Shown here piece after piece: positions 50,380 through 63,999 of a stretch of DNA of 64,000 bases (positions are counted from its first letter, which is position 1; every line of letters starts with the position of its first letter). A program made the position numbers and the translations under genes. The notes below the pieces were generated by a model. That model saw nothing but the letters and a program-made list of their open reading frames with translations. It made no database searches and was not told the origin of the DNA. The stretch is from an uncultured bacterium (lineage in GTDB: Bacteria > B130-G9), in contig CBDVDH010000007.1 of NCBI GenBank assembly GCA_965372715.1, forward strand, positions 18,580 to 82,579, written 5' to 3'.

Positions 50380-53300
50380 CTATTGAGCCGAAATCGGGTA
50401 GTGAAAGCCCATATCGACCGTGCCGGTGTCGGGTGAGCCGTCCGCCTGCGTCGTCCGATCCGATAGCCCGGCCATTGCCGACGACTGGCTGCCGGCGTCT
50501 ATGCAAGGGCTTTCGGGATGAAGGTAATACTCGCCGAACGGCCCCGTGACCAACAGCGGGTCATCGTGGATGTTGCCCTCGCCCTCGTCGTGGTCCTCAA
50601 TACAGCAATAGGTCCCGGAGCAGCCCTCTAGGTCGTCGCCGTTGCCCCAGATGATGCAGTTCTCAATGGTTGGGGTGGCTTCCTCCTCACAATAGATGCC
50701 GCCGCCTGCGCCGGATTCCGCTGCCGAGTTGTCAACTACAGTGTTGTTAGTGATGATTGGTGAGCTATGAGAGTCGCAATATACCCCTCCCCCGTCGAGG
50801 CCACCAAACAATGCATACACCCAATTGGCGATTATCAAGTTGTTTGAAATGGTTGGCGAACTGAGAGCGCAGAGTATCCCGCCACCACGCTTGCCCGCAC
50901 TGTTCTGCCCAATAGTGTTGCCACTGATCGCCGGCGAACTCTCATCAAGAAATATCCCCCCGCCGTCGTACCATACTGAGTTGTTCCTTATTTCGTTGTC
51001 CAGGATCGTCGGCGAACTGCGCTTGCAGTATATGCCTGCGCCGCCGCCCCACGAGGAGTTGCGCGTTATCGTGTTGCTTAAGATGATCGGCGAGCTATCG
51101 TTTTCGCAGCAAATGCCGCCGCCCAGAGAGTGAGTGGTGTTTTTATTGATGGTGTTTTCCGAAATTGTCGGCGAGCTCTCATCGCAGAGTATGCCCCCGC
51201 CCAGCAAGGACGCAAAATTGAGGGTTATCATGTTGCCCTTGATCGTTGGCGAGCAGCTCTTGCAGCATATTCCCCCTCCACCACTGTTAGTCTGCGCCGC
51301 CGACCCGTGCGCACCATTTCCCTCAACGATGTTATCCAAGATCATCGGGGAGCTCTGTGCGCAGTATATCCCGCCGCCGCTCAGAACTGCCGTGTTGCGT
51401 GATATCTTGTTTCGTTCAATCAAGGGAGAGCTGTCCGATTCGCAACAGACTCCGCCCCCAGAGGAGAACGCCAAATTGCCGGTGATCGTGTTATTCAGCA
51501 TCATTGGCGAGCTTTCACTGCAGTAGATGCCCCCGCCCCCGACGGCCGCGTAGTTATCCGTTATTATGTTGCTCTGGATTCGCAAAGAGCTGTTGACGCA
51601 ATACACTGCCCCGCCGCACTGATCAGCCTCCGACGCACCATAGGCCGAGCCGCCGGTCATCGTGAGACCCTCCACAATGAGGTTCTCCACGCCGATGCAG
51701 CGAATGATGTGATGGGCGGAGTCCTCCCCGTCCAGAATGGCAGTGTCGGCGCCGTCGCCTGAGATGGACACGAGGCTTCTCATCGTGAGAGGGTAAGTCT
51801 CGCCGTTCGTGGTTGCCGAATACGTGCCGGCCGCAGCGTGGATGGTCGCCGGCCTTTCCTCGGAGACCGGGGCCGAAGCGAGTGCGCAGGTAATCGTTTT
51901 GAACGGCGCCTCCGGGGAGCCATCGCCCAAGTCGTTGCCCACCTCGCCATTCACATAGAGGTGCTGCGTCCCCTCAATCCAAATGGCCAGCCTTTCAGTG
52001 GCCGACTCGGACCACTGGTAATCATCGTCCCGAACCCGGAATGAGATGGTATGGGTGCCTAGGGAAAGATCGCTTGCGAGCCTCTGAAAGTCCTTCTCAA
52101 CAGATAAGACACCGTCGAGGTCTGAGCTCCATTGGTAAGCCTCGATTGTCCCATCCTTGTCGGTGCCATGGCCTCGGAATCCAACTGTGTCACTGCCGTA
52201 TATCGCGGGATTCGGTGATATCGAATCGATATAAGCCACCGGTAACGGAAACTGAGCCTCGATGACAAGCTCCTCGGTGGCCGCCCTCGACCAGAGTCCC
52301 GAATCATCCTGCACTCTGTAGGAGATGACGTGCGCGCCCAATTCGAGGCGCCACGCGGGGTAGCTGAAGTGCTCGCTAGTGCTGAGAATGCCTTCGAGGT
52401 CAGAAGACCATTCGTGCATGTTAACGGTCCCGTCAGCGTCGGTCCCGTGCCCGACGAATTGAATGGTGTCCACGTATTGTGTAGCTGGATTGGGCGAAAT
52501 GGAGTCGATATATGCGATCGGTCGTTCGCCTGCCGGGATCGGGTAGTGAAAGCCCATATCGACAATATCAGTGTCGGGCGCGCCATCTGCCTGCGTCGTA
52601 CGGTCGGACAGGCCCGTATCCTCTGCCGACTTGCTGCCGGCGTCGATGCACGGGCTGTCGGGGTGAAGGTAGTAATCTCCCAGAGGGCCAGCGACGAACA
52701 TGGGGTCGCATTCGATATTCCCCTCGCCGGAATAATGGCCGTATCCCTGCCAGACGCAGCAATACCTCGGCGTTCCGATGTTATCATTGGTTTGACCTAT
52801 GAAGATGCAGTTCTGAACTTCTATGCGGCCATCTTCGTTCTCTATTGCATCTGCGCCCCACCCTGAGTAATTCCCCTTAAATGTGCAGTTCTCGATTACT
52901 GTGGTAAAACCATCAAAACTGCCACAGTATATCCCACCAGCTTTGCCCCAGCCAACATCATTCCACACGATCAGGCAATTCGTGACAGTTGGGTTGACAG
53001 CAAAAATGCCTGCCGCTTGATTACCCGCGTAATTATCACCTATGACACAATCTGTGATTGTGATAGTGCTCTCTGGTCCAGGAGAGTATATCCCTCCCCC
53101 AAAATCAGCTTGATTGTTCTCGATCACACAATTCCGGACTTCAGTGGCGCTGTACCTACAGTATATCCCCCCACCGGAACTGTGGGAAGTCTCACTTGCA
53201 CCGTTTTCCGTTATTGTATTGTCTAGTATTCTGAGATGGCTGTTGTAGCAGTATATGCCGCCACCGCCGTTTTCTTCATGTTCATAGTCCCAATGACTCC

Positions 53301-54072
53301 CTGTGCCTCCCGTAATGGTCAATCGTTCAATTGTTGCGCCGGTCACATTCATACAATAGAATATATGTCTGGAGTACATCTCTCCGTCGAGAATAGTATT
53401 TTCCGCACTATCGCCGACAACCGACACCCAGCTCTTCATGTTGAGTGGGAAGCTCTCACCGTTGGTCCAGGCAGCGTAGGAGCCGGCCGCGACGTGGATC
53501 GTGATCGGATCCCCCTCGGATCCCCCATAGCGAAGGCTACGGTTTATCGTCTTCCAGGGGGAGCCTTCGGACCCGTCATAAGAGTCGTTACCCAGCTGGC
53601 CATTGACGTAGTAGTGAGTGCCGACCGCCTGGTAGATCTGAAACGGGCACTGGTCAACGGAGAGGATGCCGGAGGCGCCTGTGCCCGCGCGGGAGACCGC
53701 GGTCACGTAGGTGTAGTTGCCGGGCACAGCGTCGGTCGGTATAACCTGATCGATGATCATCTCCGGTCCCGCGGCGAAACTCGAAGGCAGCGTCAGATCA
53801 GAATACCAGGGCCAGATGCCGACTGCGAAGCCGTTTTGGGTGAGCGAGACCGTGGAGCCGTCCGGCAGCACGATTGCAGCGAAGATATCCACAACGATAT
53901 CCACGCCTCGGTTCTCAACACTCATAAAGCCCTGTAACACGTCGCCTGCCGCGAACTCGTCCGCATTAAGCGAACAGCTCACCTCTATATCGACCTGCGC
54001 CTGCATCGCGAGAACGGCCACGGGCAGCCAAATCAGCAGGAGAGAGATCAGTATGATCCAATGTCTTCTCAT
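50380..54072 (-). CDS. secreted right-handed parallel beta-helix repeat protein (two beta-helix modules plus Ig/PKD-like domains)
   Basis: Signal peptide MRRHWIILISLLLIWLPVAVLA. Dozens of GGGIYC...N.I..N units. Internal duplication (AYIDSISPNP...EWSSDL appears twice). The track ORF begins at 54093. Confidence 0.8.
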   Translation of the reverse strand: MRRHWIILISLLLIWLPVAVLAMQAQVDIEVSCSLNADEFAAGDVLQGFMSVENRGVDIVVDIFAAIVLPDGSTVSLTQNGFAVGIWPWYSDLTLPSSFAAGPEMIIDQVIPTDAVPGNYTYVTAVSRAGTGASGILSVDQCPFQIYQAVGTHYYVNGQLGNDSYDGSEGSPWKTINRSLRYGGSEGDPITIHVAAGSYAAWTNGESFPLNMKSWVSVVGDSAENTILDGEMYSRHIFYCMNVTGATIERLTITGGTGSHWDYEHEENGGGGIYCYNSHLRILDNTITENGASETSHSSGGGIYCRYSATEVRNCVIENNQADFGGGIYSPGPESTITITDCVIGDNYAGNQAAGIFAVNPTVTNCLIVWNDVGWGKAGGIYCGSFDGFTTVIENCTFKGNYSGWGADAIENEDGRIEVQNCIFIGQTNDNIGTPRYCCVWQGYGHYSGEGNIECDPMFVAGPLGDYYLHPDSPCIDAGSKSAEDTGLSDRTTQADGAPDTDIVDMGFHYPIPAGERPIAYIDSISPNPATQYVDTIQFVGHGTDADGTVNMHEWSSDLEGILSTSEHFSYPAWRLELGAHVISYRVQDDSGLWSRAATEELVIEAQFPLPVAYIDSISPNPAIYGSDTVGFRGHGTDKDGTIEAYQWSSDLDGVLSVEKDFQRLASDLSLGTHTISFRVRDDDYQWSESATERLAIWIEGTQHLYVNGEVGNDLGDGSPEAPFKTITCALASAPVSEERPATIHAAAGTYSATTNGETYPLTMRSLVSISGDGADTAILDGEDSAHHIIRCIGVENLIVEGLTMTGGSAYGASEADQCGGAVYCVNSSLRIQSNIITDNYAAVGGGGIYCSESSPMMLNNTITGNLAFSSGGGVCCESDSSPLIERNKISRNTAVLSGGGIYCAQSSPMILDNIVEGNGAHGSAAQTNSGGGGICCKSCSPTIKGNMITLNFASLLGGGILCDESSPTISENTINKNTTHSLGGGICCENDSSPIILSNTITRNSSWGGGAGIYCKRSSPTILDNEIRNNSVWYDGGGIFLDESSPAISGNTIGQNSAGKRGGGILCALSSPTISNNLIIANWVYALFGGLDGGGVYCDSHSSPIITNNTVVDNSAAESGAGGGIYCEEEATPTIENCIIWGNGDDLEGCSGTYCCIEDHDEGEGNIHDDPLLVTGPFGEYYLHPESPCIDAGSQSSAMAGLSDRTTQADGSPDTGTVDMGFHYPISAQ

Positions 54073-54653
54073 CGCGAGGTCCTCCAAGTTCATTACACTT
54101 ATAGCAACGCAGCGAAAACACTGGACGGATTCATAAGCAGATTCCGTACCAATTAAATAGAATACCTGCTTTTTGGCGCATTTGCTCGGATCTTTGTGGT
54201 CCCCAATAATCAGATTGATTTGGTATCGCGAATCGTAGGATCATATGAATCGGGCACTTGAAAGGTCAGTTGTCGGGCCATAGTTGGTTTTGGTCTTGCA
54301 CCCGTTGGGTGATGATTTGGAGTGCGGGGACCTGGCACCGCTTTCACTTGCCGCAGCCCGATGCGGCGCCTTTTTTTGATTAACAGCTCCGGGAAGTCCG
54401 GATCGGTGCCTTTAGGGTCTTAAGAGCCGTGCATTAGGGGTGGTGTCGAGCCACCACCAATGAAATCCGCCGCGCGGCGGACGCACTCCAAAAAGCCAGA
54501 ACCAGCTTGGGTCATTTGACTATTGCGAGCGCGGCTGATCGTTGCTTTTTTGGCACTAGGTCTGCGATAATCCACAACACGTGATAACACCTGATACAGA
54601 ATCATAGTGTGGCTTGCTGGCTGCGTGTGTGCTGCAATCAACGGGAAAACCAA

Positions 54654-55475: not shown

Positions 55476-57626
55476 GTGGCTGAACGCAGAAAACCAGGCA
55501 AACGTCGCAGCTTCGTGCTGACGAGGCGCATGACGATCTACGATCTGTTTCGCGAACGCGTCTTCAAGGAGGCGCTCTCTGTTCTGATGATCGCTGTCGC
55601 GGCGATCTCGCTCGTCAGCCTCTGGGGCGGGGATTCGGAGACCAATCCGGTCGGCCTTGTCGGCCGCTTTCTATCCGGCGCGTTCGCTCTTGTTTTCGGG
55701 GAAGTCCCATCCTATCCGCTCCTCGTGATTCTGTTTGCATTCGCTTTTGCCACGCTAATCAGGAGGAAACCGAGGCTTCTGCCGCTGAAGATCATCGCCA
55801 CTTTCGTGTTCACAGTAGCGCTCGGGACGATCTACGCGCTCATCAAGGGGCACGCGTCGATGCAGGAGGCGTTTTTCGCACGCGAGCTCGCCAGGTTCCT
55901 GATTGACTATTTCAGTGCGTTTGGGGCCATCGTCCTGATCATAGCTCTTTTGCTCGCCTCGGCAATGCTCGTGGCCGGGGTTGGCATCGGTCAGGTCTTT
56001 GGCTTCCTTCTCCGCATCTTCGGCAGAACGGCTAAGCAACGGGCGGACGTGCTGGCTGAGCCAGCCTTGGCGACTTCAAAGGCGAAGAGAAGGCGAGAGG
56101 CCAAGAGGCCAGGCGAAACGCCCGCCTCGGGCCCTGCTGGCATAGGGTGCCCCGCTATCGCGAGCGAGGGTTACCAGGCCCCGGCGGTGGACCTTCTGGA
56201 CCCGACCGGGCGCATGGACAGCGCTGAGCGGCAGAGCAATCTGATCAGAAAGGGCGAACTGATCGTCGAGAAGCTGGCCGACCACAACATCGAGGGCAAG
56301 ATAGCGGGCATCCTCACGGGGCCGATCATCACGAGGTTCGAGTTCCGGCCAGCGCGGGGAGTGAAGCTCAGCAGGATAGTCTCACTCGCCGACGACCTTG
56401 CGCTGGCGATGAAGGCGAAATTCGTGCCTCGTATAGCGCCCATCCCGGGCAGGTCGGTGGTCGGGATCGAGATCGCCAATGAGAACCGTCGCATAATAAG
56501 GTTCCGCGAGGTTCTGTCGTCAGGCCAATTCCATGATAATCCAACGAAGCTGAAGCTCGCCGTCGGAACTGATATCGCGGGCCAGCCGCACGTCATCTCC
56601 CTCGAGAGCATCACGCATATCCTCATCGCTGGGGCAACCGGGACGGGCAAGTCAGTCTGCATCAACTCGATGCTTTGCAGTCTGCTCTACTCGACCAGCC
56701 CGGAGGAGCTTGAACTCATCCTCATCGACCCCAAGATGCTGGAGCTGTCGCCATACAATGGCATCCCGCACCTGCGCGAGCCGGTTATCAGCGACGTGCA
56801 GAGCGCGGAACTCGCGTTCAGATGGGCAGTCTCCGAGATGGACCATAGATACCAACTCCTGGCCGAACGGAGGGTCCGCCACCTAAACGAATACAACGAG
56901 CGCGTTCTCGAGGAACGGAAGGCTCGCGCGAGCGAGCTCACCGGACTTGGGCCCCAGGAGATGCCGCCCGAGCTCAAGACCATCCCCAACCTCGTCATAG
57001 TCGTCGATGAGCTTGCCGACCTCATACTCTCGGCGAGGCAGGCAATCGAGGTCCCGATAATCAAGCTCGCCGCCAAGGCCCGCGCCGCTGGCATCTATCT
57101 CGTGCTCGCCACACAGCGGCCATCTGTTGATGTGGTAACTGGGCTTATCAAGACAAACTTCCCATCGAGGCTCGCGTTTAGGGTCGCCCAGAAGGTCGAT
57201 TCGAGGACGATACTCGATCAAAACGGCGCCGAGAAACTGCTCGGCAGGGGCGATATGCTTTTTCTGACGCCTGGCGTCGCAGGTCTCACTCGTCTGCACG
57301 GCGCCTTCATTTCTGAGCGAGAGATCGAAAGGATCGTCAGGCATCTGAAAAAGCAGCCGGCGCCGGTTCGCGAGAGCTCGATCTTCGACGAGGTCGAGCA
57401 GCAGGAGACGCTCGATATCGAGGGCGCGGACGATCCGCATTACAGAAACGCCGTCGAGATAGTCGTCCGCTCCAAATACGCCTCGATCTCGCTGCTTCAG
57501 CGCAAGCTCAAGATCGGCCACAGTCGTGCGGCCCGCTACATCGACATGATGGAGCAGCAGGGCGTAGTCGGCCCCTTTAGAGGCAGCAAGCCCCGCGAAG
57601 TCCTCGTGGACGACGTCAGCTTCTAG
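55476..57626 (+). CDS. ftsK: DNA translocase FtsK
   Basis: N-terminal TM helices, motor domain HILIAGATGTGKSVCINSML, and a C-terminal gamma domain. GTG start. Confidence 0.9.
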   Translation: MAERRKPGKRRSFVLTRRMTIYDLFRERVFKEALSVLMIAVAAISLVSLWGGDSETNPVGLVGRFLSGAFALVFGEVPSYPLLVILFAFAFATLIRRKPRLLPLKIIATFVFTVALGTIYALIKGHASMQEAFFARELARFLIDYFSAFGAIVLIIALLLASAMLVAGVGIGQVFGFLLRIFGRTAKQRADVLAEPALATSKAKRRREAKRPGETPASGPAGIGCPAIASEGYQAPAVDLLDPTGRMDSAERQSNLIRKGELIVEKLADHNIEGKIAGILTGPIITRFEFRPARGVKLSRIVSLADDLALAMKAKFVPRIAPIPGRSVVGIEIANENRRIIRFREVLSSGQFHDNPTKLKLAVGTDIAGQPHVISLESITHILIAGATGTGKSVCINSMLCSLLYSTSPEELELILIDPKMLELSPYNGIPHLREPVISDVQSAELAFRWAVSEMDHRYQLLAERRVRHLNEYNERVLEERKARASELTGLGPQEMPPELKTIPNLVIVVDELADLILSARQAIEVPIIKLAAKARAAGIYLVLATQRPSVDVVTGLIKTNFPSRLAFRVAQKVDSRTILDQNGAEKLLGRGDMLFLTPGVAGLTRLHGAFISEREIERIVRHLKKQPAPVRESSIFDEVEQQETLDIEGADDPHYRNAVEIVVRSKYASISLLQRKLKIGHSRAARYIDMMEQQGVVGPFRGSKPREVLVDDVSF

Positions 57627-58458
57627 CGGCGAGCCCAGTCCGTTTCAGCAGGCACTCCCGCAAGGCCACGAGGTCTGAGGGACGCCGGTCATTGGAGACC
57701 TGCCATTCGGCCACGGCCTCGGCCAAGTCGATGTCGGCTTCCCCAGGCGCAAGACTGCCCTTCGAGCCGCGTATGTAAGACCGCGCCTCTCGAAAGAGCG
57801 GCTTGCCGGGGAAGGTCTGGGGCCAGTCGCCGGCATTGATGGTCTGCTTGATCTCGTTGTGATACTTGGAGAGGTTGCTAGCGATGCTATTCTCTGCCAG
57901 GTTTGCTCTCGGGAGACCGCAGACATGCCTATGCCAGTCCTTGGTTTCCAATATGTAGTCCAGAGCACTTGTATGGTCTGTTATCTCGTCTTGAGTAGGG
58001 TCGGGGGGAAAGCTTCGTGTCAGTTCGATACGAAGGTCTGAAAGAGATCTCTTGCACACAACCCACCACGTCAGCGCTGTGGCCCTCTTCTTTACCCGAC
58101 GTTCTATCTCGGACGCTCTCCTGGTCAACCCCTCTGCGGCACAATTCGCAAGCGCGTCCCAGTCAAGCAGGTAGTTCTCGACCTCGTACCGCGGAATAGT
58201 GAAGACGTAAGCGTGGGGATTCGTCCAATCCGGGAAGTTGGTCTCGCCGAAATCTTTGTCTCGAACTCCAAAGACATTCGTGCGTTGGTCCGGGCCTGAA
58301 CGAGCACCAGTTGTCAGCGCGCTCACGCTTTCCCGGCCCCCGGCCACGGCGAAGCCGATTCTCGGGTCTTTCTGCCAAAGTGCGCGGAGGTATTCCTTTG
58401 TCAGCTCGTCCTCCACCCAGACGACGACAGCTCGCCTCTTGTATAGCGACCTAAGCAT
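57616..58458 (-). CDS. DUF4435-like (TOPRIM-like) protein, AriB-like partner of the upstream ATPase
   Basis: 280 aa. N-terminal VVVWVEDELTKEYLRAL resembles the VEGxxD motif of OLD/TOPRIM-like DUF4435 proteins. 8-nt overlap with the ATPase gene. Confidence 0.45.
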   Translation of the reverse strand: MLRSLYKRRAVVVWVEDELTKEYLRALWQKDPRIGFAVAGGRESVSALTTGARSGPDQRTNVFGVRDKDFGETNFPDWTNPHAYVFTIPRYEVENYLLDWDALANCAAEGLTRRASEIERRVKKRATALTWWVVCKRSLSDLRIELTRSFPPDPTQDEITDHTSALDYILETKDWHRHVCGLPRANLAENSIASNLSKYHNEIKQTINAGDWPQTFPGKPLFREARSYIRGSKGSLAPGEADIDLAEAVAEWQVSNDRRPSDLVALRECLLKRTGLAARS

Positions 58459-59506
58459 TGTGCTCCGGTCGGTCCCGGATCACAGGCTTGTCGTTTGGAC
58501 CGAGACGCGGGTCGCCCTCGTGAAGCAGCCAAAACCGCTCGTAGCTCATTACCGAATCGAGGATCTCTGCCGAATGCGTCGCCACGATGATCTGCGTGTC
58601 AGGCAGAAGCACTCTCAGTGCTCTCATTATGGCGCAGTGCCACTCTTCGTGCAGGTGTAGCTCCGGCTCGTCGATCAGGACGATTCCGCCCCGGTAGTCG
58701 TTCATCGTGAACCAGCCGGCCATCGTCAGAACCTCGATCTCGCCGGAACTGAGGTCGTTCACCGGGATTTCTGCGCCGTCTTTTCTCCGAAGGTAAAGGT
58801 TGTAGCCTCCATCAGGGTCATCCATATCGACTGACCTGACGAAAAACTCCGCCTCGTCCCCGGGATAGAATATCTTCCAGGCCTTCTCGAGAGGATCAAT
58901 GATGGCTCGCACCTTGGGATTCGATCCAGGATCAAGCCTGTTCATGGTTGAGTATAGCCACAGATTCCTGCACTTCTTTTGGAGAGCTACGAGCCGGTCT
59001 GCTTCCTTACGGTCTTCGTCCTTATCTCCCTTCTCATCCGCGACCGGCAGCGATGCAACAAGCTTGGGCGTCCGCCAAGATGTGAAATACGAAATCGGGA
59101 TTGCGACGCGACGAAGAAGACCGGGGACAGGCCAATCCATCGCGGCAATCTCGAGTCTCATCGTCCGGTGATCTTCGTCCCACACTTCCCCAATGTGCCA
59201 TTTCATCTGATCGGATTGCCACTCCGTCTGAACAGACTCATCTTTAATCAGAGCATCGGCTTCGATCTCGAAGTTTTCAGCGCCGGCTTTCACGTTGCTC
59301 AATGGATTCTCAGCTGAAGCAGCCATTAACTGCTTGCGGCCGCAAGCGATCAGGATCGCTTCCAGGACGGAGGTCTTGCCGCAGCCGTTGGGGCCGGCGA
59401 GGACTACGAGGTCGAGCGGATTGCCGTCGGGATCGGTGAAGTCGAGGTCGAGCTCGCCGATGCACCTGAAGTTGCGAATCTTGAGGCCTTTGATCTTGAT
59501 TCCCAT
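58451..59506 (-). CDS. ABC/SMC-like ATPase (AAA_15/AAA_21 type), AriA-like
   Basis: IKGLKIRNFRCIGELDLDFT...VLAGPNGCGKTSVLEAI (Walker A), VLIDEPELHLHEEW (Walker B / D-loop) and a terminal ATHS. Confidence 0.75.
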   Translation of the reverse strand: MGIKIKGLKIRNFRCIGELDLDFTDPDGNPLDLVVLAGPNGCGKTSVLEAILIACGRKQLMAASAENPLSNVKAGAENFEIEADALIKDESVQTEWQSDQMKWHIGEVWDEDHRTMRLEIAAMDWPVPGLLRRVAIPISYFTSWRTPKLVASLPVADEKGDKDEDRKEADRLVALQKKCRNLWLYSTMNRLDPGSNPKVRAIIDPLEKAWKIFYPGDEAEFFVRSVDMDDPDGGYNLYLRRKDGAEIPVNDLSSGEIEVLTMAGWFTMNDYRGGIVLIDEPELHLHEEWHCAIMRALRVLLPDTQIIVATHSAEILDSVMSYERFWLLHEGDPRLGPNDKPVIRDRPEHNA

Positions 59507-59631
59507 GCCGAAAGGTTACATTTCCCGTCCGCTGCATTCAAGCACGATCGTGCCCGAAACCCGGGATACCCACGAGCCACCGCACTCCCCGTCCTCGAAG
59601 GGCCGCCTGCCAAACACACGATGTCAGGCTA

Positions 59632-60993
59632 TCATGCGCTCGGCGAGGAGCGTGCGAGCAGCGAGTAGAACATCCCGTCGCAGTCAGAAGTATGTGGCAG
59701 AAGGGTTATGCCGAGGCCGGTTGCGGAGGCGCGCAGCGCCTCGGGGAAGTTGCGGACGGGCTGCACTCGAAAATCGCCGTTGCGCCTCAAGAACTTCCCG
59801 ATCACTTGCTCGTTCTCCTCAGGCTCCAGGCTGCACGTGGAGTAGAGAATCGTTCCGCGGGGCTTTGCGAGGGTCGCGCACGATTCCAGCATCTTCAGCT
59901 GTAGCCTGGCGAGCTTCCCAAGATGAGCCGGCCCTACCCGCCACCTTATCTCCGGGTGCCGGCGGATGGTGCCGGTACCTGAACACGGTGCGTCCAGCAG
60001 CACAAGATCGAATGATTCCGTTCTCAAGGGCGCATAAAGAAGATCGCTTGCGACGAGTCGGACGTTCTTCAGGCCGAGCCGCTCAACCTGCCGTCTGGCG
60101 TCTTTGACCTTTCTTGCGTAGATGTCGTTGCCGAATACCGATGCGTTGGGAAAGAGCTCCGAAAGATGCGTGAGCTTCTGGCCGACGCCGGCGCAGACAT
60201 CGACAATCGATTGCGGCTTGAGCCCTTCAAGCACCAGGCTCAACATCTGGGCGCCCTCGTCCTGAATCGTGAATAGGCCCTCATGCCATTCCGGGGTCTC
60301 CTTTGGCGAGCCCGTGCCTGAGAGCCTTAGCGTGTGCGGGCAAACAAGGGATTTTCTGGCGTCAAAACCTCGCTCCTTGAGTTTCACTGCAAGACCGCTG
60401 GGCGTCGTCTTCGTTACGTTGACCCGAACGGTCTTCGGAGGCGCCTGATTGAGCGCCGAGACGAGTCTGACCAGCTCCTTCCTCCCGAAGCGCCGACTCC
60501 ATCTTGAGATGAGCTGTTCGGGGAACGAAAAGGCCAGTGCCACAGACCTGATGAACTCTGCCTCATCCGCCTTGAGCGCGATTTGAGGCGGCTCAAGGGA
60601 GGTTTTACGGCTCACGAGGCGCCTCAGGAGGGCGTTGACGAAGCCAGACGCCTTTTCACCGCAGCGCTGTTTGGCGATTCGCACCGTCTCGCTGACTGCG
60701 GCGAAATCAGGCACGTTGTGCAAAGACATTATCTGATACGCCCCGAGCCTAAGCGCCGTGGCTGTTGGGACGTCGGTTCTGTCCGGCTTGAAGGAACCAG
60801 CCTGCGCGAGATAGTAGTCGAGCAAGGTCTGGTTTCTGAGCGCGCCAAAGACGAGTTCTGTGGCCAGATGCCGTTCCGCGGGAGGCAGATCGGGGTTTCT
60901 GGCAAGCAGCGCGCTCAGCAGCACGTCCGAGTGGCTGCCCTGGGTCTGGACGCGCGTCAGGACTTCAAATGCTATTGCTCGAGCGGAGGTCAC
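59632..60993 (-). CDS. rsmB: 16S rRNA (cytosine967-C5)-methyltransferase
   Basis: NusB-like N-domain, then a Fmu/RsmB catalytic domain with DAPCSGTGTIRRHPEIRWR. Confidence 0.9.
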   Translation of the reverse strand: MTSARAIAFEVLTRVQTQGSHSDVLLSALLARNPDLPPAERHLATELVFGALRNQTLLDYYLAQAGSFKPDRTDVPTATALRLGAYQIMSLHNVPDFAAVSETVRIAKQRCGEKASGFVNALLRRLVSRKTSLEPPQIALKADEAEFIRSVALAFSFPEQLISRWSRRFGRKELVRLVSALNQAPPKTVRVNVTKTTPSGLAVKLKERGFDARKSLVCPHTLRLSGTGSPKETPEWHEGLFTIQDEGAQMLSLVLEGLKPQSIVDVCAGVGQKLTHLSELFPNASVFGNDIYARKVKDARRQVERLGLKNVRLVASDLLYAPLRTESFDLVLLDAPCSGTGTIRRHPEIRWRVGPAHLGKLARLQLKMLESCATLAKPRGTILYSTCSLEPEENEQVIGKFLRRNGDFRVQPVRNFPEALRASATGLGITLLPHTSDCDGMFYSLLARSSPSA

Positions 60994-61580
60994 TTTCCAG
61001 CTTGCGAGAGTATCTGCCTCAAGAGCTCTGGCCTTCCCATGCCGGTCTTTGATGAGAAGAGTATCACCTGCGAGCCCTGCACACCGTCAATCGCGCCGGT
61101 TATCCACTCGACAGCAGCCTTGTGCTTCGAGCGGGTGATCCTGTCGGCCTTAGTTGCGACCACGACGAACCTCACCCCGTGCGCGATCAGCCATTGCCAT
61201 AGCGACACATCTGACGTTTCAGGCGGCCGTCGGCAATCGACAAGCAAGACGCAGAGCGAGGCTCGACCGGAGGATAGATAGGCCTCAACCAGCGGGGCCA
61301 GCCTTGCCTGAATGGCCTTCGGTGCTTTTGAATAGCCGTATCCAGGGAGATCGACGAAGCAGATGGTATCGTTGACGTTGTAGAAATTGATGCATCTCGT
61401 CCTTCCGGGGCTTGCGCTGGACTGCGCGAGTCGCTTTCTCCGGACGAGGCAGTTGATCAATGAGGACTTGCCCACATTTGACCTTCCGGCGAACGCGACC
61501 TCCGGAAGACTCTGTTCAGGCAGCCATTCCAACGAGTGGGAGCTCCCAACGAATTGAACCGAGCTAATCCGCATGGTCAC
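60990..61580 (-). CDS. engB: ribosome biogenesis GTP-binding protein YihA/YsxC
   Basis: FAGRSNVGKSSLINCL, DLPGYGY and TKADR. 4-nt overlap with rsmB. Confidence 0.9.
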   Translation of the reverse strand: MTMRISSVQFVGSSHSLEWLPEQSLPEVAFAGRSNVGKSSLINCLVRRKRLAQSSASPGRTRCINFYNVNDTICFVDLPGYGYSKAPKAIQARLAPLVEAYLSSGRASLCVLLVDCRRPPETSDVSLWQWLIAHGVRFVVVATKADRITRSKHKAAVEWITGAIDGVQGSQVILFSSKTGMGRPELLRQILSQAGK

Positions 61581-61695: not shown

Positions 61696-63999
61696 CTAAT
61701 CGAGCGTCTGGCCCAGACTCTTCTGCGCCTCAACCAGACAGCCATTGCCGTTGGATGAGTTGTAGAGAAGCGCCCAGGCGATGAGAGGCAATGGGGCCAC
61801 GGCCTCTGATGTAATGGTCAGACAACCGTAACCGACGCTGTCCGCGTCGCTGGCACGCACCTCGACGAAGCCGCCCGGAATCACCTCAAATGGGAACTCG
61901 CCAACAAGGAGACCGTGCCGGTCCTTGAGGGATATCTTACCGGGCACGTTCACCTGGTTCGGGTTTCGGACCCAAATGAACGTCTCCTGATACCGCAGCC
62001 CATCGAACTCCCAATATGGGATATAAATGGGTGGCGTGTAGCTTCTCGACGCCGGGACAGGATAGAACTGCGACCTCTTGGCGTTCAGCCAGACAGCAAA
62101 TACGCCGATCTCATCGTCGTCAGCCCAAATCGCACGAGCCCAGCCACTTTCCCCGGCCATCGTGCATCTGCTCGCCTGAATGACACTCATACCGCCTGCC
62201 GATACCGATGTGAGGTCTGCGCCCCGAATCATACCCATATCATTGTAGAAGCTTATCTGGGGAGCGGCTAAGGTGTCACCGAGGTTTGAGAACACTATGT
62301 ATGTGTCGAGGTTGAAGAGCGGTTGGTTTCTCCAGGTCGGCACGAAGTAGGGTGACAGCTCGGCGTTTTCGAGAACGGGCAGCTCGAATCCGCCGCCCCT
62401 GACCCTGTTGAGCATAACGGCCCATACCCGGAGCGGATCGCTGAAGACCATCCTTGCCGAGCCGATGTTTGTGTCCAGAACCGTCTCTGACAGCAGCAGT
62501 GCCCTGGTTCCAGAGGGAGCCATGTTGGCGTGTATTGTGTCAATCTCGGCGCCAAACTCATCAAAGAGGATGATCTCAGCGCTCACGTCGCGGTCGTGCT
62601 GGTTGGCCAGGGCGATAAACGTGTCGAAAGTGACCTCGTTCCCGCCGCCGGGTGAATTGTCCCTAATAACCTGCCAGAATGGCATCTGAAGCGGCCCTGG
62701 CCTCGCGCCGGCCAGGTCCAGGGATATGGTCGGACCAACATCTACCTTGCCCCAGACGACAAGACTGCCATTCCTCCAGCTGATGTAGCCTGTTCCGGAG
62801 TCGGAGCCGGTTACACCCGGGACCTCAGATATCTTCAGCACCTTTGTCTCTTTTCCAGCTACCGGCACCAGATACCGCTCTATCGGCTGGCCATTGTATC
62901 TCGAAAGCACCACTTCCACACCAACAGGGTCCGGGCCAATGTTGGTCATCACTATACTGGTCTCGAAGTTTGGTGATATGTTCTTCTCAACGAGCCAGAA
63001 TGGGATGGCGGCCTCGTCTCCGTGCTTGATCACGGGGCCGATGAGGTAGCCGGTTTCGGGAACTCTCGCTGTTCCTCCGTAGCCGTCATTCGCAAAGAAG
63101 TAGTAATGGTGCTCGCCAGTCGATAGCGTTCCAGGTGATGCAGTGTAAGCGTATGTTCCGTCGTAGTCTTCTCCAGAGGTGAGCCACATCCGGCGCTCTT
63201 GGCCGTCCAACCATACGGACATGAGATGCGGCGCATCTCCCTGTTCATCGAAGTAATCAACTGAGAACACGTATCTTTCGAGGAAGCCGCCCCGCTCTGG
63301 GTCAACCGCTGGATTGCTCAGAATGGGAGGGATGTTGGTCTTGCGGACGTAGGGACCCTCGAACTCATCCCCGGGCGTTCCCGGCATTCTCGTCTCGGCG
63401 CCCAGGCTGTCCGTGGCGTAGAACCAATACGAGTGGAGTCCCTCGAAAAGGCCCACAACTGGCACACCGTAAACACCGTTCTCAGGTGTCCCGGACAAAA
63501 GCTCCATCTCGTAAAGCTCCCCATCGAGATAAAGATGCGTCTGCCCAGCTGGATTGGCGTTGATGTCTGAATACCTGGCGCTGAACATAAACTCGGTGGT
63601 CGCGGTGCCGGACGCGGGGTCCACCATCCCGTCGGTCAGAACAGGGCGCGTGTTGGTCCCGGTAACGTTCGGGCCAGATATCTCGCCCCTGATCGGGAGT
63701 CGACCTGCGCCGCCCGTCTCATCGATAAAGCTGAAGTAGAAGCTGTGGCTGCCCAACGCGAGATCAGATATCCTGCAATAATAAGTGGCGCCGCTCGCGA
63801 AATTTGTCAAGGCCGGTACCGTCGTACTCTCGCCCTCGTCAGTCACGCCCTCCAGGAACGTCATCTCGTGTGGAGAGCTATCGACAACGACCGTCTTGTT
63901 GATCGGCATATAGTCGTGAGGACTGGTATAACGCACGGTGAACGTAACCGGGGTCTCGACCAGCGGGTTCCTGGGCGAAACGATGCCGTCTGAGAGCAT
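61696..63999 (-). CDS. large hypothetical (probably extracellular) protein, N-terminus beyond the window end
   Basis: More than 767 aa of open frame running off the window. Ser/Gly/Thr-rich with repeated YxxxxxGxxxF segments. No catalytic motifs recognised. Confidence 0.5.
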   Translation of the reverse strand: MLSDGIVSPRNPLVETPVTFTVRYTSPHDYMPINKTVVVDSSPHEMTFLEGVTDEGESTTVPALTNFASGATYYCRISDLALGSHSFYFSFIDETGGAGRLPIRGEISGPNVTGTNTRPVLTDGMVDPASGTATTEFMFSARYSDINANPAGQTHLYLDGELYEMELLSGTPENGVYGVPVVGLFEGLHSYWFYATDSLGAETRMPGTPGDEFEGPYVRKTNIPPILSNPAVDPERGGFLERYVFSVDYFDEQGDAPHLMSVWLDGQERRMWLTSGEDYDGTYAYTASPGTLSTGEHHYYFFANDGYGGTARVPETGYLIGPVIKHGDEAAIPFWLVEKNISPNFETSIVMTNIGPDPVGVEVVLSRYNGQPIERYLVPVAGKETKVLKISEVPGVTGSDSGTGYISWRNGSLVVWGKVDVGPTISLDLAGARPGPLQMPFWQVIRDNSPGGGNEVTFDTFIALANQHDRDVSAEIILFDEFGAEIDTIHANMAPSGTRALLLSETVLDTNIGSARMVFSDPLRVWAVMLNRVRGGGFELPVLENAELSPYFVPTWRNQPLFNLDTYIVFSNLGDTLAAPQISFYNDMGMIRGADLTSVSAGGMSVIQASRCTMAGESGWARAIWADDDEIGVFAVWLNAKRSQFYPVPASRSYTPPIYIPYWEFDGLRYQETFIWVRNPNQVNVPGKISLKDRHGLLVGEFPFEVIPGGFVEVRASDADSVGYGCLTITSEAVAPLPLIAWALLYNSSNGNGCLVEAQKSLGQTLD

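Follow-up and report, generated by a model that had tools for sequence, protein, structure and literature searches.

A compact PARIS-like pair of ATPase and putative TOPRIM nuclease genes beside ftsK in an uncultured bacterium

PARIS, an anti-phage system placed in class 4 of the OLD family and represented by AriA and AriB of Escherichia coli B185 (PDB 8ux9, 8v45-8v49), is detected by a simple rule: a gene that matches AAA_15 with at least 32 bits, or AAA_21 with at least 27 bits, must be adjacent to a gene that matches DUF4435 with at least 27 bits (Rousset 2022, PMC9122126). In AriA, the segment IS2 and a four-helix coiled-coil bundle build the hexamer and the interface that binds Ocr. AriB is composed of a toprim domain at the N terminus and, at the C terminus, a bundle of helices (PMC10802264); its two-metal acidic site is formed by E26, D30, D88, E90 and E122, and its residues K60 and K64 hold the anticodon loop of the tRNA (PMC12409363). 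AriA keeps AriB sequestered until an anti-restriction protein sets it free; AriB then cleaves tRNA, and the infection is abortive. Modules like PARIS have been described before within restriction-modification (R-M) and BREX loci, RloAB and StySA being examples. Here we analyse two overlapping genes, encoding a compact ATP-binding cassette (ABC) ATPase and a DUF4435/TOPRIM-like partner, which lie beside ftsK in a 64,000-nucleotide stretch of DNA from an uncultured bacterium (contig CBDVDH010000007.1 of assembly GCA_965372715.1, positions 18,580 to 82,579 of the forward strand); this whole stretch is called the window, and positions are counted from its first letter.

The pair is probably a chromosomal two-gene anti-phage cassette of the abortive-infection type, of the compact PARIS or class 4 OLD kind, working by "cage and release". 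Homology, fold, catalytic residues, pairing, context and evolutionary dynamics were analysed directly, and E. coli PARIS served as the model for sequestration, trigger, target and phenotype. The PARIS detection rule recognizes the pair, its DUF4435 part only marginally. The elements on which the argument depends are the following:

58451 to 59506, minus strand: compact ABC ATPase of the AAA_15/AAA_21 type, 351 aa, the proposed AriA-like sensor and sequestering subunit (Pfam, PADLOC, AlphaFold 2, Foldseek)
57616 to 58458, minus strand: DUF4435/TOPRIM-like protein, 280 aa, the proposed AriB-like nuclease effector (Pfam, PADLOC, PDB fold match)
58451 to 58458, minus strand: 8-nt overlap ATGCTTAG, in which the ATPase gene stops and the partner gene starts (junction CAC AAT GCT TAG / ATG CTT AGG)
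58802 to 59338, minus strand: hypervariable middle of the ATPase, about aa 57-235, made of the N-lobe beta subdomain and the helical hairpin (allele alignment)
58129 to 58434, minus strand: TOPRIM core of the partner, aa 9-110, with E16/D17, D67-x-D69 and E92/E94/N95 (DUF4435 alignment, predicted strands, conservation)

Both reading frames and their 8-nt overlap, which suggests translational coupling of the two genes, are exactly those proposed by an earlier, sequence-only reading of this DNA, and overlapping ends of the two genes are also seen in distant members of the family. The same reading had ascribed a P-loop, a Walker B motif and an H-loop to the ATPase, and all motifs of an ABC ATPase were indeed found: Walker A GPNGCGKT (38-45), signature LSSGE (252-256), Walker B VLIDEPE (276-282) and H-loop ATHS (309-312), with 236 residues between the Walker A lysine (K44) and the Walker B glutamate (E280). 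The Pfam searches that it had suggested returned AAA_21 (6.7e-22, 79.3 bits) and AAA_15 (1.7e-20, 74.4 bits), and SMC_N was matched as well. Among 5027 PADLOC models, PtuA (2.3e-30), AriAB (6e-28) and AriA (2.5e-24) were about equal, and no NCBIfam model matched at equivalog level (PtuA 76.7 bits against a cut-off of 500, MADS3 43.3 against 420, RecF TIGR00611 38.8 against 172). The AlphaFold 2 model (predicted local distance difference test, pLDDT, 87.6) is a bare ABC head, in which a two-helix hairpin at 169-213 is the sole link between the lobes. In Foldseek it comes closest to PtuA heads of Septu and retron I-A complexes (E ~2e-17, template modelling score, TM, ~0.55-0.63), and in a sequence search of PDB chains PtuA 8ee4 was matched at 9.5e-13.

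With PtuA the best match of the ATPase in PADLOC, in PDB sequences and in Foldseek, the pair might be taken for an effector module of Septu or of a type I-A retron, in which a PtuA-type ATPase works with a nuclease. Gene content refutes this, and we give it the slimmest chance of all the explanations considered: no HNH PtuB, reverse transcriptase or retron non-coding RNA occurs in or near the locus, the partner belongs to DUF4435 and not to HNH, and the PtuA matches, far below the NCBIfam cut-off, cover shared ABC motifs only.

An alignment of alleles divides the ATPase into parts of very different conservation: aa 1-55 and about 240-351 are 87-100% conserved, whereas identity over aa 57-235 falls to 4-35%. 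Compared with the closest relative, this middle shows 59-78% nucleotide identity together with insertions and deletions, against 96-98% at both ends of the gene, and a local dip of the GC content to 0.53 coincides with it. The hypervariable middle is thus a candidate trigger-sensing surface, by analogy with AriA.

The partner matches DUF4435 alone in Pfam, with 29.4 bits against a gathering cut-off of 27 (E 8.4e-7), a marginal pass, and in PADLOC it matches AriB (5e-8) and AriAB (8e-9) and no other model, in agreement with the DUF4435/AriB assignment that the sequence-only reading had put forward. DUF4435 aligns residues 9-110 to positions 1-102 of its 238, that is, to its N-terminal part. Strands are predicted at residues 11-15, 34-38, 62-66 and 85-87, and as in TOPRIM domains the acidic residues follow them: E16/D17 come after strand 1, D67-x-D69 after strand 3 and E92/E94 after strand 4. 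The AlphaFold 2 model (pLDDT 75.8) has four strands in an alpha/beta N-terminal domain and six helices in the C-terminal one, the plan described for AriB. Its top fold match in the PDB is AriB (8ux9_A, E 4.5e-4, probability 1.0, TM 0.43), followed by a second AriB chain (8v46_D, E 1.4e-3), with TM values for AriB of 0.37-0.43 over the full length.

Among 88 members of the partner family, which share ~30% identity, D17, D67, D69, E92, E94, G218 and K219 are invariant and E16 and N95 are at least 90% conserved. This acidic set is as expected for a two-metal TOPRIM site and suggests one. The earlier reading had likened the N-terminus to the motif VEGxxD; VVVWVEDELTKEYL is present there, while the motif itself reads V-E-D-x-L-T, with D17 directly beside the glutamate and a threonine at the place of the motif's aspartate. 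The invariant D17 may substitute for D30 of AriB. Since a residue-level alignment with AriB was not obtained, the mapping of the catalytic residues rests on predicted secondary structure.

The same data can be read in another way, in which the complex of ATPase and nuclease itself binds and cuts phage or damaged DNA, as in OLD or Gabija, and no tRNase is released. The C-terminal nuclease regions of OLD are the next partner folds after AriB (6njw, E 0.055), the lysines K60 and K64 of AriB are not conserved, and the ATPase resembles PtuA heads, which serve DNA-targeting effectors. A lysine of the helical domain is reportedly part of the OLD active site, and G218-K219 of the partner may act alike. 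Nevertheless PF20469 (OLD-like_TOPRIM) is matched by 1 of the 88 members, at 0.0033, as against 68 of 88 for DUF4435 (E <=0.01), OLD and GajA are single polypeptides and not split pairs, and AriB is the best full-length fold match of the partner. A mode of this kind is therefore unlikely, though it is the rival to which we give most weight.

The pair has many counterparts. About 800 homologues of the ATPase, of 310-350 aa, occur in Desulfobacterota, Planctomycetota and other phyla. A word-indexed search gave only 12 homologues of the partner, whereas an exhaustive profile search gave 488 cluster representatives of about 280 aa, 183 of them with E <=1e-30; nearly all of these 183 best representatives have 270-290 aa and align over their full length. 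DNA pattern scans were seeded with the ATPase alignment, the partner sequences being too diverse for this purpose. All four distant ATPases sampled first (L015-L018) are directly followed by a partner of ~280 aa: three of these partners (L016-L018) match the family profile over the full length (hhalign probability 100, E 1e-42 to 1e-55), and that of L015, shortened by the gene caller, reaches 331 bits against the family hidden Markov model (HMM) when its full open reading frame (ORF) is taken. Gene order, sizes and overlap of the pair recur across phyla. As judged by these profiles, the pair is part of a large, hitherto unnamed compact clade.

AriAB is the top PADLOC match of the distant family ATPases, and four distant partners match AriB/AriAB alone among the PADLOC models, several distant partners reaching only 18-24 bits on the AriB model. 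RloB and DUF4276 are matched by none of the 88 partners (E <=0.01), and the partner of the window gave no RloB match at E <=1. In metagenomes the compact clade grades into pairs with a weaker ATPase and partner and then into single-ORF fusions that match both HMMs, the fused ORFs scoring 16-41 bits against the partner family HMM.

Several pairs of a second tier were also noted (L066, L067, L070, L072, L073, L075, L076, L083, L085), with 120-200 bits for the ATPase and 45-71 bits for the partner. They mostly fail Pfam DUF4435 and may be further, undetected PARIS-like clades. A single ORF of ~600 aa on a viral contig of IMG/VR (L040:2839-4647) matches both family HMMs weakly, with 44 bits for the ATPase and 28 bits for the partner; from these two matches we take it to be an AriAB- or OLD-like fusion on a phage-derived contig.

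Distant members of the clade lie among defence genes. In a metagenome-assembled genome (MAG) of Gemmataceae (L018, 300-9014), the pair is located between hsdS and hsdR of a type I R-M operon, in the order hsdM-hsdS-ATPase-partner-hsdR. At L142, MmeI-type R-M, TIR, HTH-M78 and QueC-like genes are on one side of the pair and helicase, MZB and UvrD genes on the other; at L144 the pair adjoins brxC and pglZ of BREX and a PIN toxin-antitoxin pair, and at L016 a second AAA_15/21 pair. Decay of the partner gene is also found: at L144 (7001-10044) only two fragments of it remain, behind a 456-aa gene that has no Pfam match and is inserted after the ATPase, in L143 and L063 it is split by a stop or frameshift, and L064 has a family ATPase (326 bits) without a partner.

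In the window the pair has a different setting. ftsK (55476-57626, plus strand) is convergent with it, so closely that the partner's stop codon (57616-57618) falls 11 nt within the ftsK 3' end, and on the pair's own strand it is preceded by engB (60990-61580, minus strand) and rsmB (59632-60993, minus strand). The identities of the flanking genes were taken from proteins 80-96% identical in related contigs that carry the Pfam domains FtsK_SpoIIIE, RsmB-F, MMR_HSR1 and CN_hydrolase. The convergence with ftsK had been recognized in the sequence-only reading; its placing of the pair upstream of rsmB is true in plus-strand coordinates only, the pair being transcriptionally downstream of both rsmB and engB.

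The relatives of this locus are MAGs like Candidatus Coatesbacteria. The pair is located 3' of ftsK in every relative whose FtsK is at least 80% identical (L001, L002, L006, L008/L145, L010); on its other side these relatives have rsmB, a radical-SAM gene or a beta-helix gene. The deeper relatives L009, L011 and L012 (FtsK 69-75% identical) lack the pair 3' of ftsK, and in a further lineage (L003-L005) it lies beside secG. Synonymous divergence (dS), estimated together with its nonsynonymous counterpart (dN) by the method of Nei-Gojobori, does not follow that of the flanks:

L008/L145, closest relative: flanks 0.06-0.22, ATPase 0.48, partner 0.68
L006: flanks 0.44-0.59, ATPase 1.08, partner saturated
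L001: flanks 0.77-0.89, ATPase 0.66, partner 0.56
57604 to 57626, strand not applicable: abrupt rise in divergence around the ftsK stop codon, and with it the right-hand limit of the exchangeable cassette (comparison with the closest relative)

In L001 the relation is inverted, the pair having the lower dS. Wherever dS is unsaturated, dN/dS of the pair is 0.16-0.28, values that place both genes under purifying selection. Nucleotide identity with the closest relative stays at 97-100% as far as the ftsK stop and breaks down beyond it; that relative has ~130 extra nt between ftsK and the partner gene, and the spacer between rsmB and the ATPase is 53-56% identical, so that there are identity cliffs at both edges of the cassette and a mosaic in its interior. 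Absence from three relatives and discordance of dS with the flanks argue for an exchangeable accessory cassette and against a vertically inherited core pair. Neither direct or inverted repeats suggestive of site-specific integration around the cassette, nor a tRNA gene within 40-64 kb, nor an integrase were found, which makes a recent insertion by a mobile element the wrong description. Taken together, these comparisons show an accessory cassette that is functional and self-contained and has its alleles exchanged, or kept for long, at one fixed site. The insertion into a housekeeping stretch postulated by the sequence-only reading needs a qualification, the cassette being long-resident and allele-swapping and not recently inserted. 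The constancy of the pair beside ftsK, which as a mark of core genes would have counted against that reading, is superficial, given the three absences, the variable other flank, the secG locus and the discordant dS.

Recombination has left further traces. In L006 (5789-8004; FtsK 90% identical), two tandem ATPases of 333 and 339 aa precede a single DUF4435 partner; they are 51% identical overall, have near-identical N- and C-termini and carry the same upstream leader. The ATPase of the window is like copy 1 in its N-lobe and like copy 2 in its hairpin region, and this mosaic suggests recombination between ATPase paralogues. Identity to the closest relative also falls from 96-99% to 87-93% about one third into rsmB (near 60600, within window positions 59700-60630) and stays lower to the gene end, which suggests that a recombination tract runs from the cassette into rsmB. 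Two contigs of the MAG CAYZPW01 (L008:10278-10862 and L145:9028-9285) both end within the partner gene, at about codon 86-88, suggesting that heterogeneity between strains at this gene broke the assembly. In the Coatesbacteria MAG JAFGAU01 (L001:1-2065), a DEAD/Helicase_C/MZB protein and a D12-class adenine methyltransferase are encoded ~5-7 kb upstream of the pair and are possibly further defence genes in the variable region beside ftsK.

A position beside ftsK also raises the possibility of a housekeeping factor of DNA repair or chromosome segregation linked to FtsK. RecF is an ABC ATPase without coiled coils and RecR carries a TOPRIM domain, so a RecF/RecR-like pair would look similar; the position is kept in all relatives with FtsK at least 80% identical, and the ATPase has a weak N-terminal RecF match (6e-10). 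That match is confined to residues 5-90 and stays far below the RecF cut-off, the pair is missing from three relatives that retain ftsK and occupies the unrelated secG locus elsewhere, its dS departs from the flanks, the ATPase middle is hypervariable, and distant members are in defence islands and not near ftsK. Distribution and evolution thus largely refute this explanation, and it has very little probability left.

The cassette carries its own conserved leader, in which two elements were distinguished:

59513 to 59541, minus strand: promoter-like leader with TTGAAT (59541-59536), 17 nt, TAACCT (59518-59513) and 6 nt to the ATG (conservation)
59537 to 59558, strand not applicable: imperfect 22-nt palindrome, TTCGGGCACGATCGTGCTTGAA on the minus strand, with the centre CGATCG, overlapping the -35-like TTGAAT (inverted-repeat search)

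Every Coatesbacteria-like allele, both tandem ATPases of L006 and the secG-locus copy in L003 included, has upstream of it the motif TTGAA(T/A)-N17/18-TA(A/G)CCT, whose end lies 6 nt from the start codon. The motif is a putative promoter; a generic scan for sigma-70 promoters and terminators did not flag the leader, and its results were not above shuffled expectation. The palindrome is partly conserved in aligned leaders, with the related cores GCGTGATCGCGC in L006 copy 1 and AGATCT in L145, and it could, speculatively, be an operator.

An operator of this kind would also suit a selfish type II toxin-antitoxin pair, in which the ATPase neutralises a toxic nuclease and the module persists by post-segregational killing or recombinational spread, with no sensing of phage. 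The palindrome on the promoter-like motif could then be autoregulatory, the genes are tightly coupled and overlap, alleles have been swapped between genomes, and several family copies have decayed nuclease genes. We think this distinctly improbable: the hypervariability of the ATPase surface would be difficult to account for if there were no evolving ligand from outside, since the partner is under purifying selection, the family is repeatedly nested in R-M, BREX and other defence loci, and plasmids, a common place for addiction modules, yielded no member.

If the pair is, as we favour, a cassette of the PARIS kind, a plausible sequence of events can be modelled on E. coli. In an uninfected cell, a dimer of the ATPase would keep the nuclease bound to its head-head surface, as a monomer without activity. 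A trigger from the phage would bind the hypervariable middle, and ATP binding and hydrolysis would then free the nuclease, which would dimerise via its helical C-terminal domain and cut host nucleic acid by two-metal catalysis; cleavage would halt growth and phage production. The candidate targets of the nuclease are tRNA, other RNA or DNA. As IS1, IS2 and the coiled-coil bundle are lacking, the complex is most likely built on a single head-head dimer and not on a hexamer, and with no coiled-coil bundle neither the trigger nor its place of binding can be those known from AriA, Ocr and the coiled-coil interface.

A number of observations weigh against placing the pair with PARIS and against its role in defence. 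The features IS1, IS2 and four-helix coiled-coil bundle of AriA are absent from the compact ATPase, which by its model should be unable to assemble or sense as AriA does. The 50 Foldseek matches listed for the ATPase include no chain of AriA, and its best matches by sequence and by structure are PtuA heads, so that it is not specifically AriA-like. The likeness of the partner to AriB is a modest TM of ~0.43 from a model of pLDDT 75.8, and sequence and profile searches of PDB chains with single, 12-sequence and 88-sequence queries never reached AriB; bridging through a second-tier partner (L085) or a fused AriAB-like ORF (L115) failed as well. The relationship of partner and AriB is remote, since the family profiles never reach AriB. 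D30 of AriB has no equivalent at the same position, where the partner has Thr20. The K60/K64 tRNA "tweezers" are not conserved, the equivalent helix of the partner (42-54) having no family-conserved lysines, and because the partner family has no conserved counterpart to them a tRNA-Lys target is not to be assumed.

Context adds to these points. The direct neighbours of the pair in the window are housekeeping and not defence genes. Unlike for E. coli PARIS, no member of the family was found on IMG/VR viral contigs, sequenced phages or plasmids: the scan of viral contigs found generic AAA_15/21 ATPases only (at most 83 bits, against at least 340 bits for true members), and tblastn of the partner against plasmids and phages gave nothing. 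The partner has no significant fold match in BFVD, the best being an RloB-like protein (E 0.19). The support for the compact clade as a defence system is computational.

We therefore file the pair as a PARIS-like variant and not as canonical PARIS, because the coiled-coil bundle and hexamer feature and the tRNA-recognition residues are absent. The ATPase-nuclease architecture of PARIS, claimed by the sequence-only reading, is borne out by the detection rule and by AriB as the best fold of the partner; it does not extend to the hexamer parts specific to AriA. A bolder proposal, which we hold tentatively and with slightly more doubt than belief, is that the compact clade is a mechanistically distinct, hexamer-less PARIS, in which a minimal head dimer both cages the nuclease and senses through the hypervariable N-lobe and hairpin, and in which recombining alleles at a fixed site, without a mobile vehicle, diversify sensing. 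If this were so, sensing would proceed without the coiled-coil pocket of AriA, recombining alleles 3' of ftsK would create population-level diversity of phage sensing in Coatesbacteria, and the clade would be under-counted by current defence finders, many of its members being below the Pfam-based PARIS threshold.

The housekeeping block around the pair is flanked on one side by a 1237-aa ORF (window 50380-54093) with repeated right-handed beta-helix (NosD-like) units and on the other by a 767-aa ORF (window 61696-63999) with internally repeated modules. Homologues of these proteins in the relatives bear Beta_helix or Peptidase_C39_2 domains, and both proteins probably reside at the surface or are secreted. 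At the locus no Rfam family rose above noise.

If the cassette is active in defence, the pair shows the minimal parts for immunity of the PARIS type, an ABC head without the coiled-coil scaffold, and the extreme allelic variability marks a different sensing surface. The compact form could then be of use in telling the signal-transduction core of such ATPases apart from the add-ons for trigger recognition. The locus also documents, in a poorly known candidate phylum, a cassette of the defence type that is kept by allele exchange at a housekeeping junction and not by a mobile element, and it belongs to a clade that sits at the sensitivity limit of current detection rules.

Four established families were also considered as a home for the pair and rejected. 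Membership in AbiL/RloAB is excluded as PF13707 is matched by no family member, and membership among single-chain OLD of class 1 or 2 or GajA by the presence of two genes and the near absence of PF20469. The MADS3 score given above, together with the lack of a mad4 match for the partner, excludes MADS (MAD3/MAD4), and the RecF score and its restriction to residues 5-90 exclude RecF/RecR.

Among known systems the pair is closest to PARIS, with which it shares a co-oriented AAA_15/21 ATPase gene followed by a DUF4435/TOPRIM gene, conserved acidic, putatively metal-binding residues, a variable putative sensing region in the ATPase and the association with R-M and BREX. In its variability the middle of the ATPase resembles the trigger-sensing pores of AriA, which are poorly conserved. 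The ATPase has 351 aa against 464 aa in AriA, and the spacing from Walker A lysine to Walker B glutamate is 236 against 354 residues (K39 to E393), a difference of 118 that is close to IS1 plus IS2 of AriA (~107 residues). In the partner the motif is E16-D17 and not E26...D30 as in AriB, and DxD and not DxE. The compact cassette was not found on phages, satellites or plasmids, and sequence profiles do not join the two families. The single-gene AriAB fusions of the "merged" PARIS clades are related, AriAB being among the best PADLOC matches of both window proteins, but here the domains are separate genes.

The other relatives share less. PtuA of Septu and of type I-A retrons (PDB 8ee4, 8eea, 9e91, 9nnb) provides the closest solved ABC heads by sequence and fold; it is longer (450-550 aa), has a longer insertion and works with the HNH protein PtuB, with or without reverse transcriptase and msDNA, genes of which there is no sign here. 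OLD proteins (P2 Old, class 1 and 2) and GajA of Gabija likewise join an ABC ATPase to a TOPRIM two-metal nuclease, but within one polypeptide and with OLD-like_TOPRIM in place of a second gene. AbiL and RloAB of Campylobacter are, like this pair, two-gene combinations of an ABC ATPase with a TOPRIM-like partner, and RloAB sits within a type I R-M locus as the Gemmataceae pair does, but their partner is RloB (PF13707). The general picture of defence by ATPase and TOPRIM proteins is thus extended and not altered, the pair being a compact form of an already known type of system and not a new kind.

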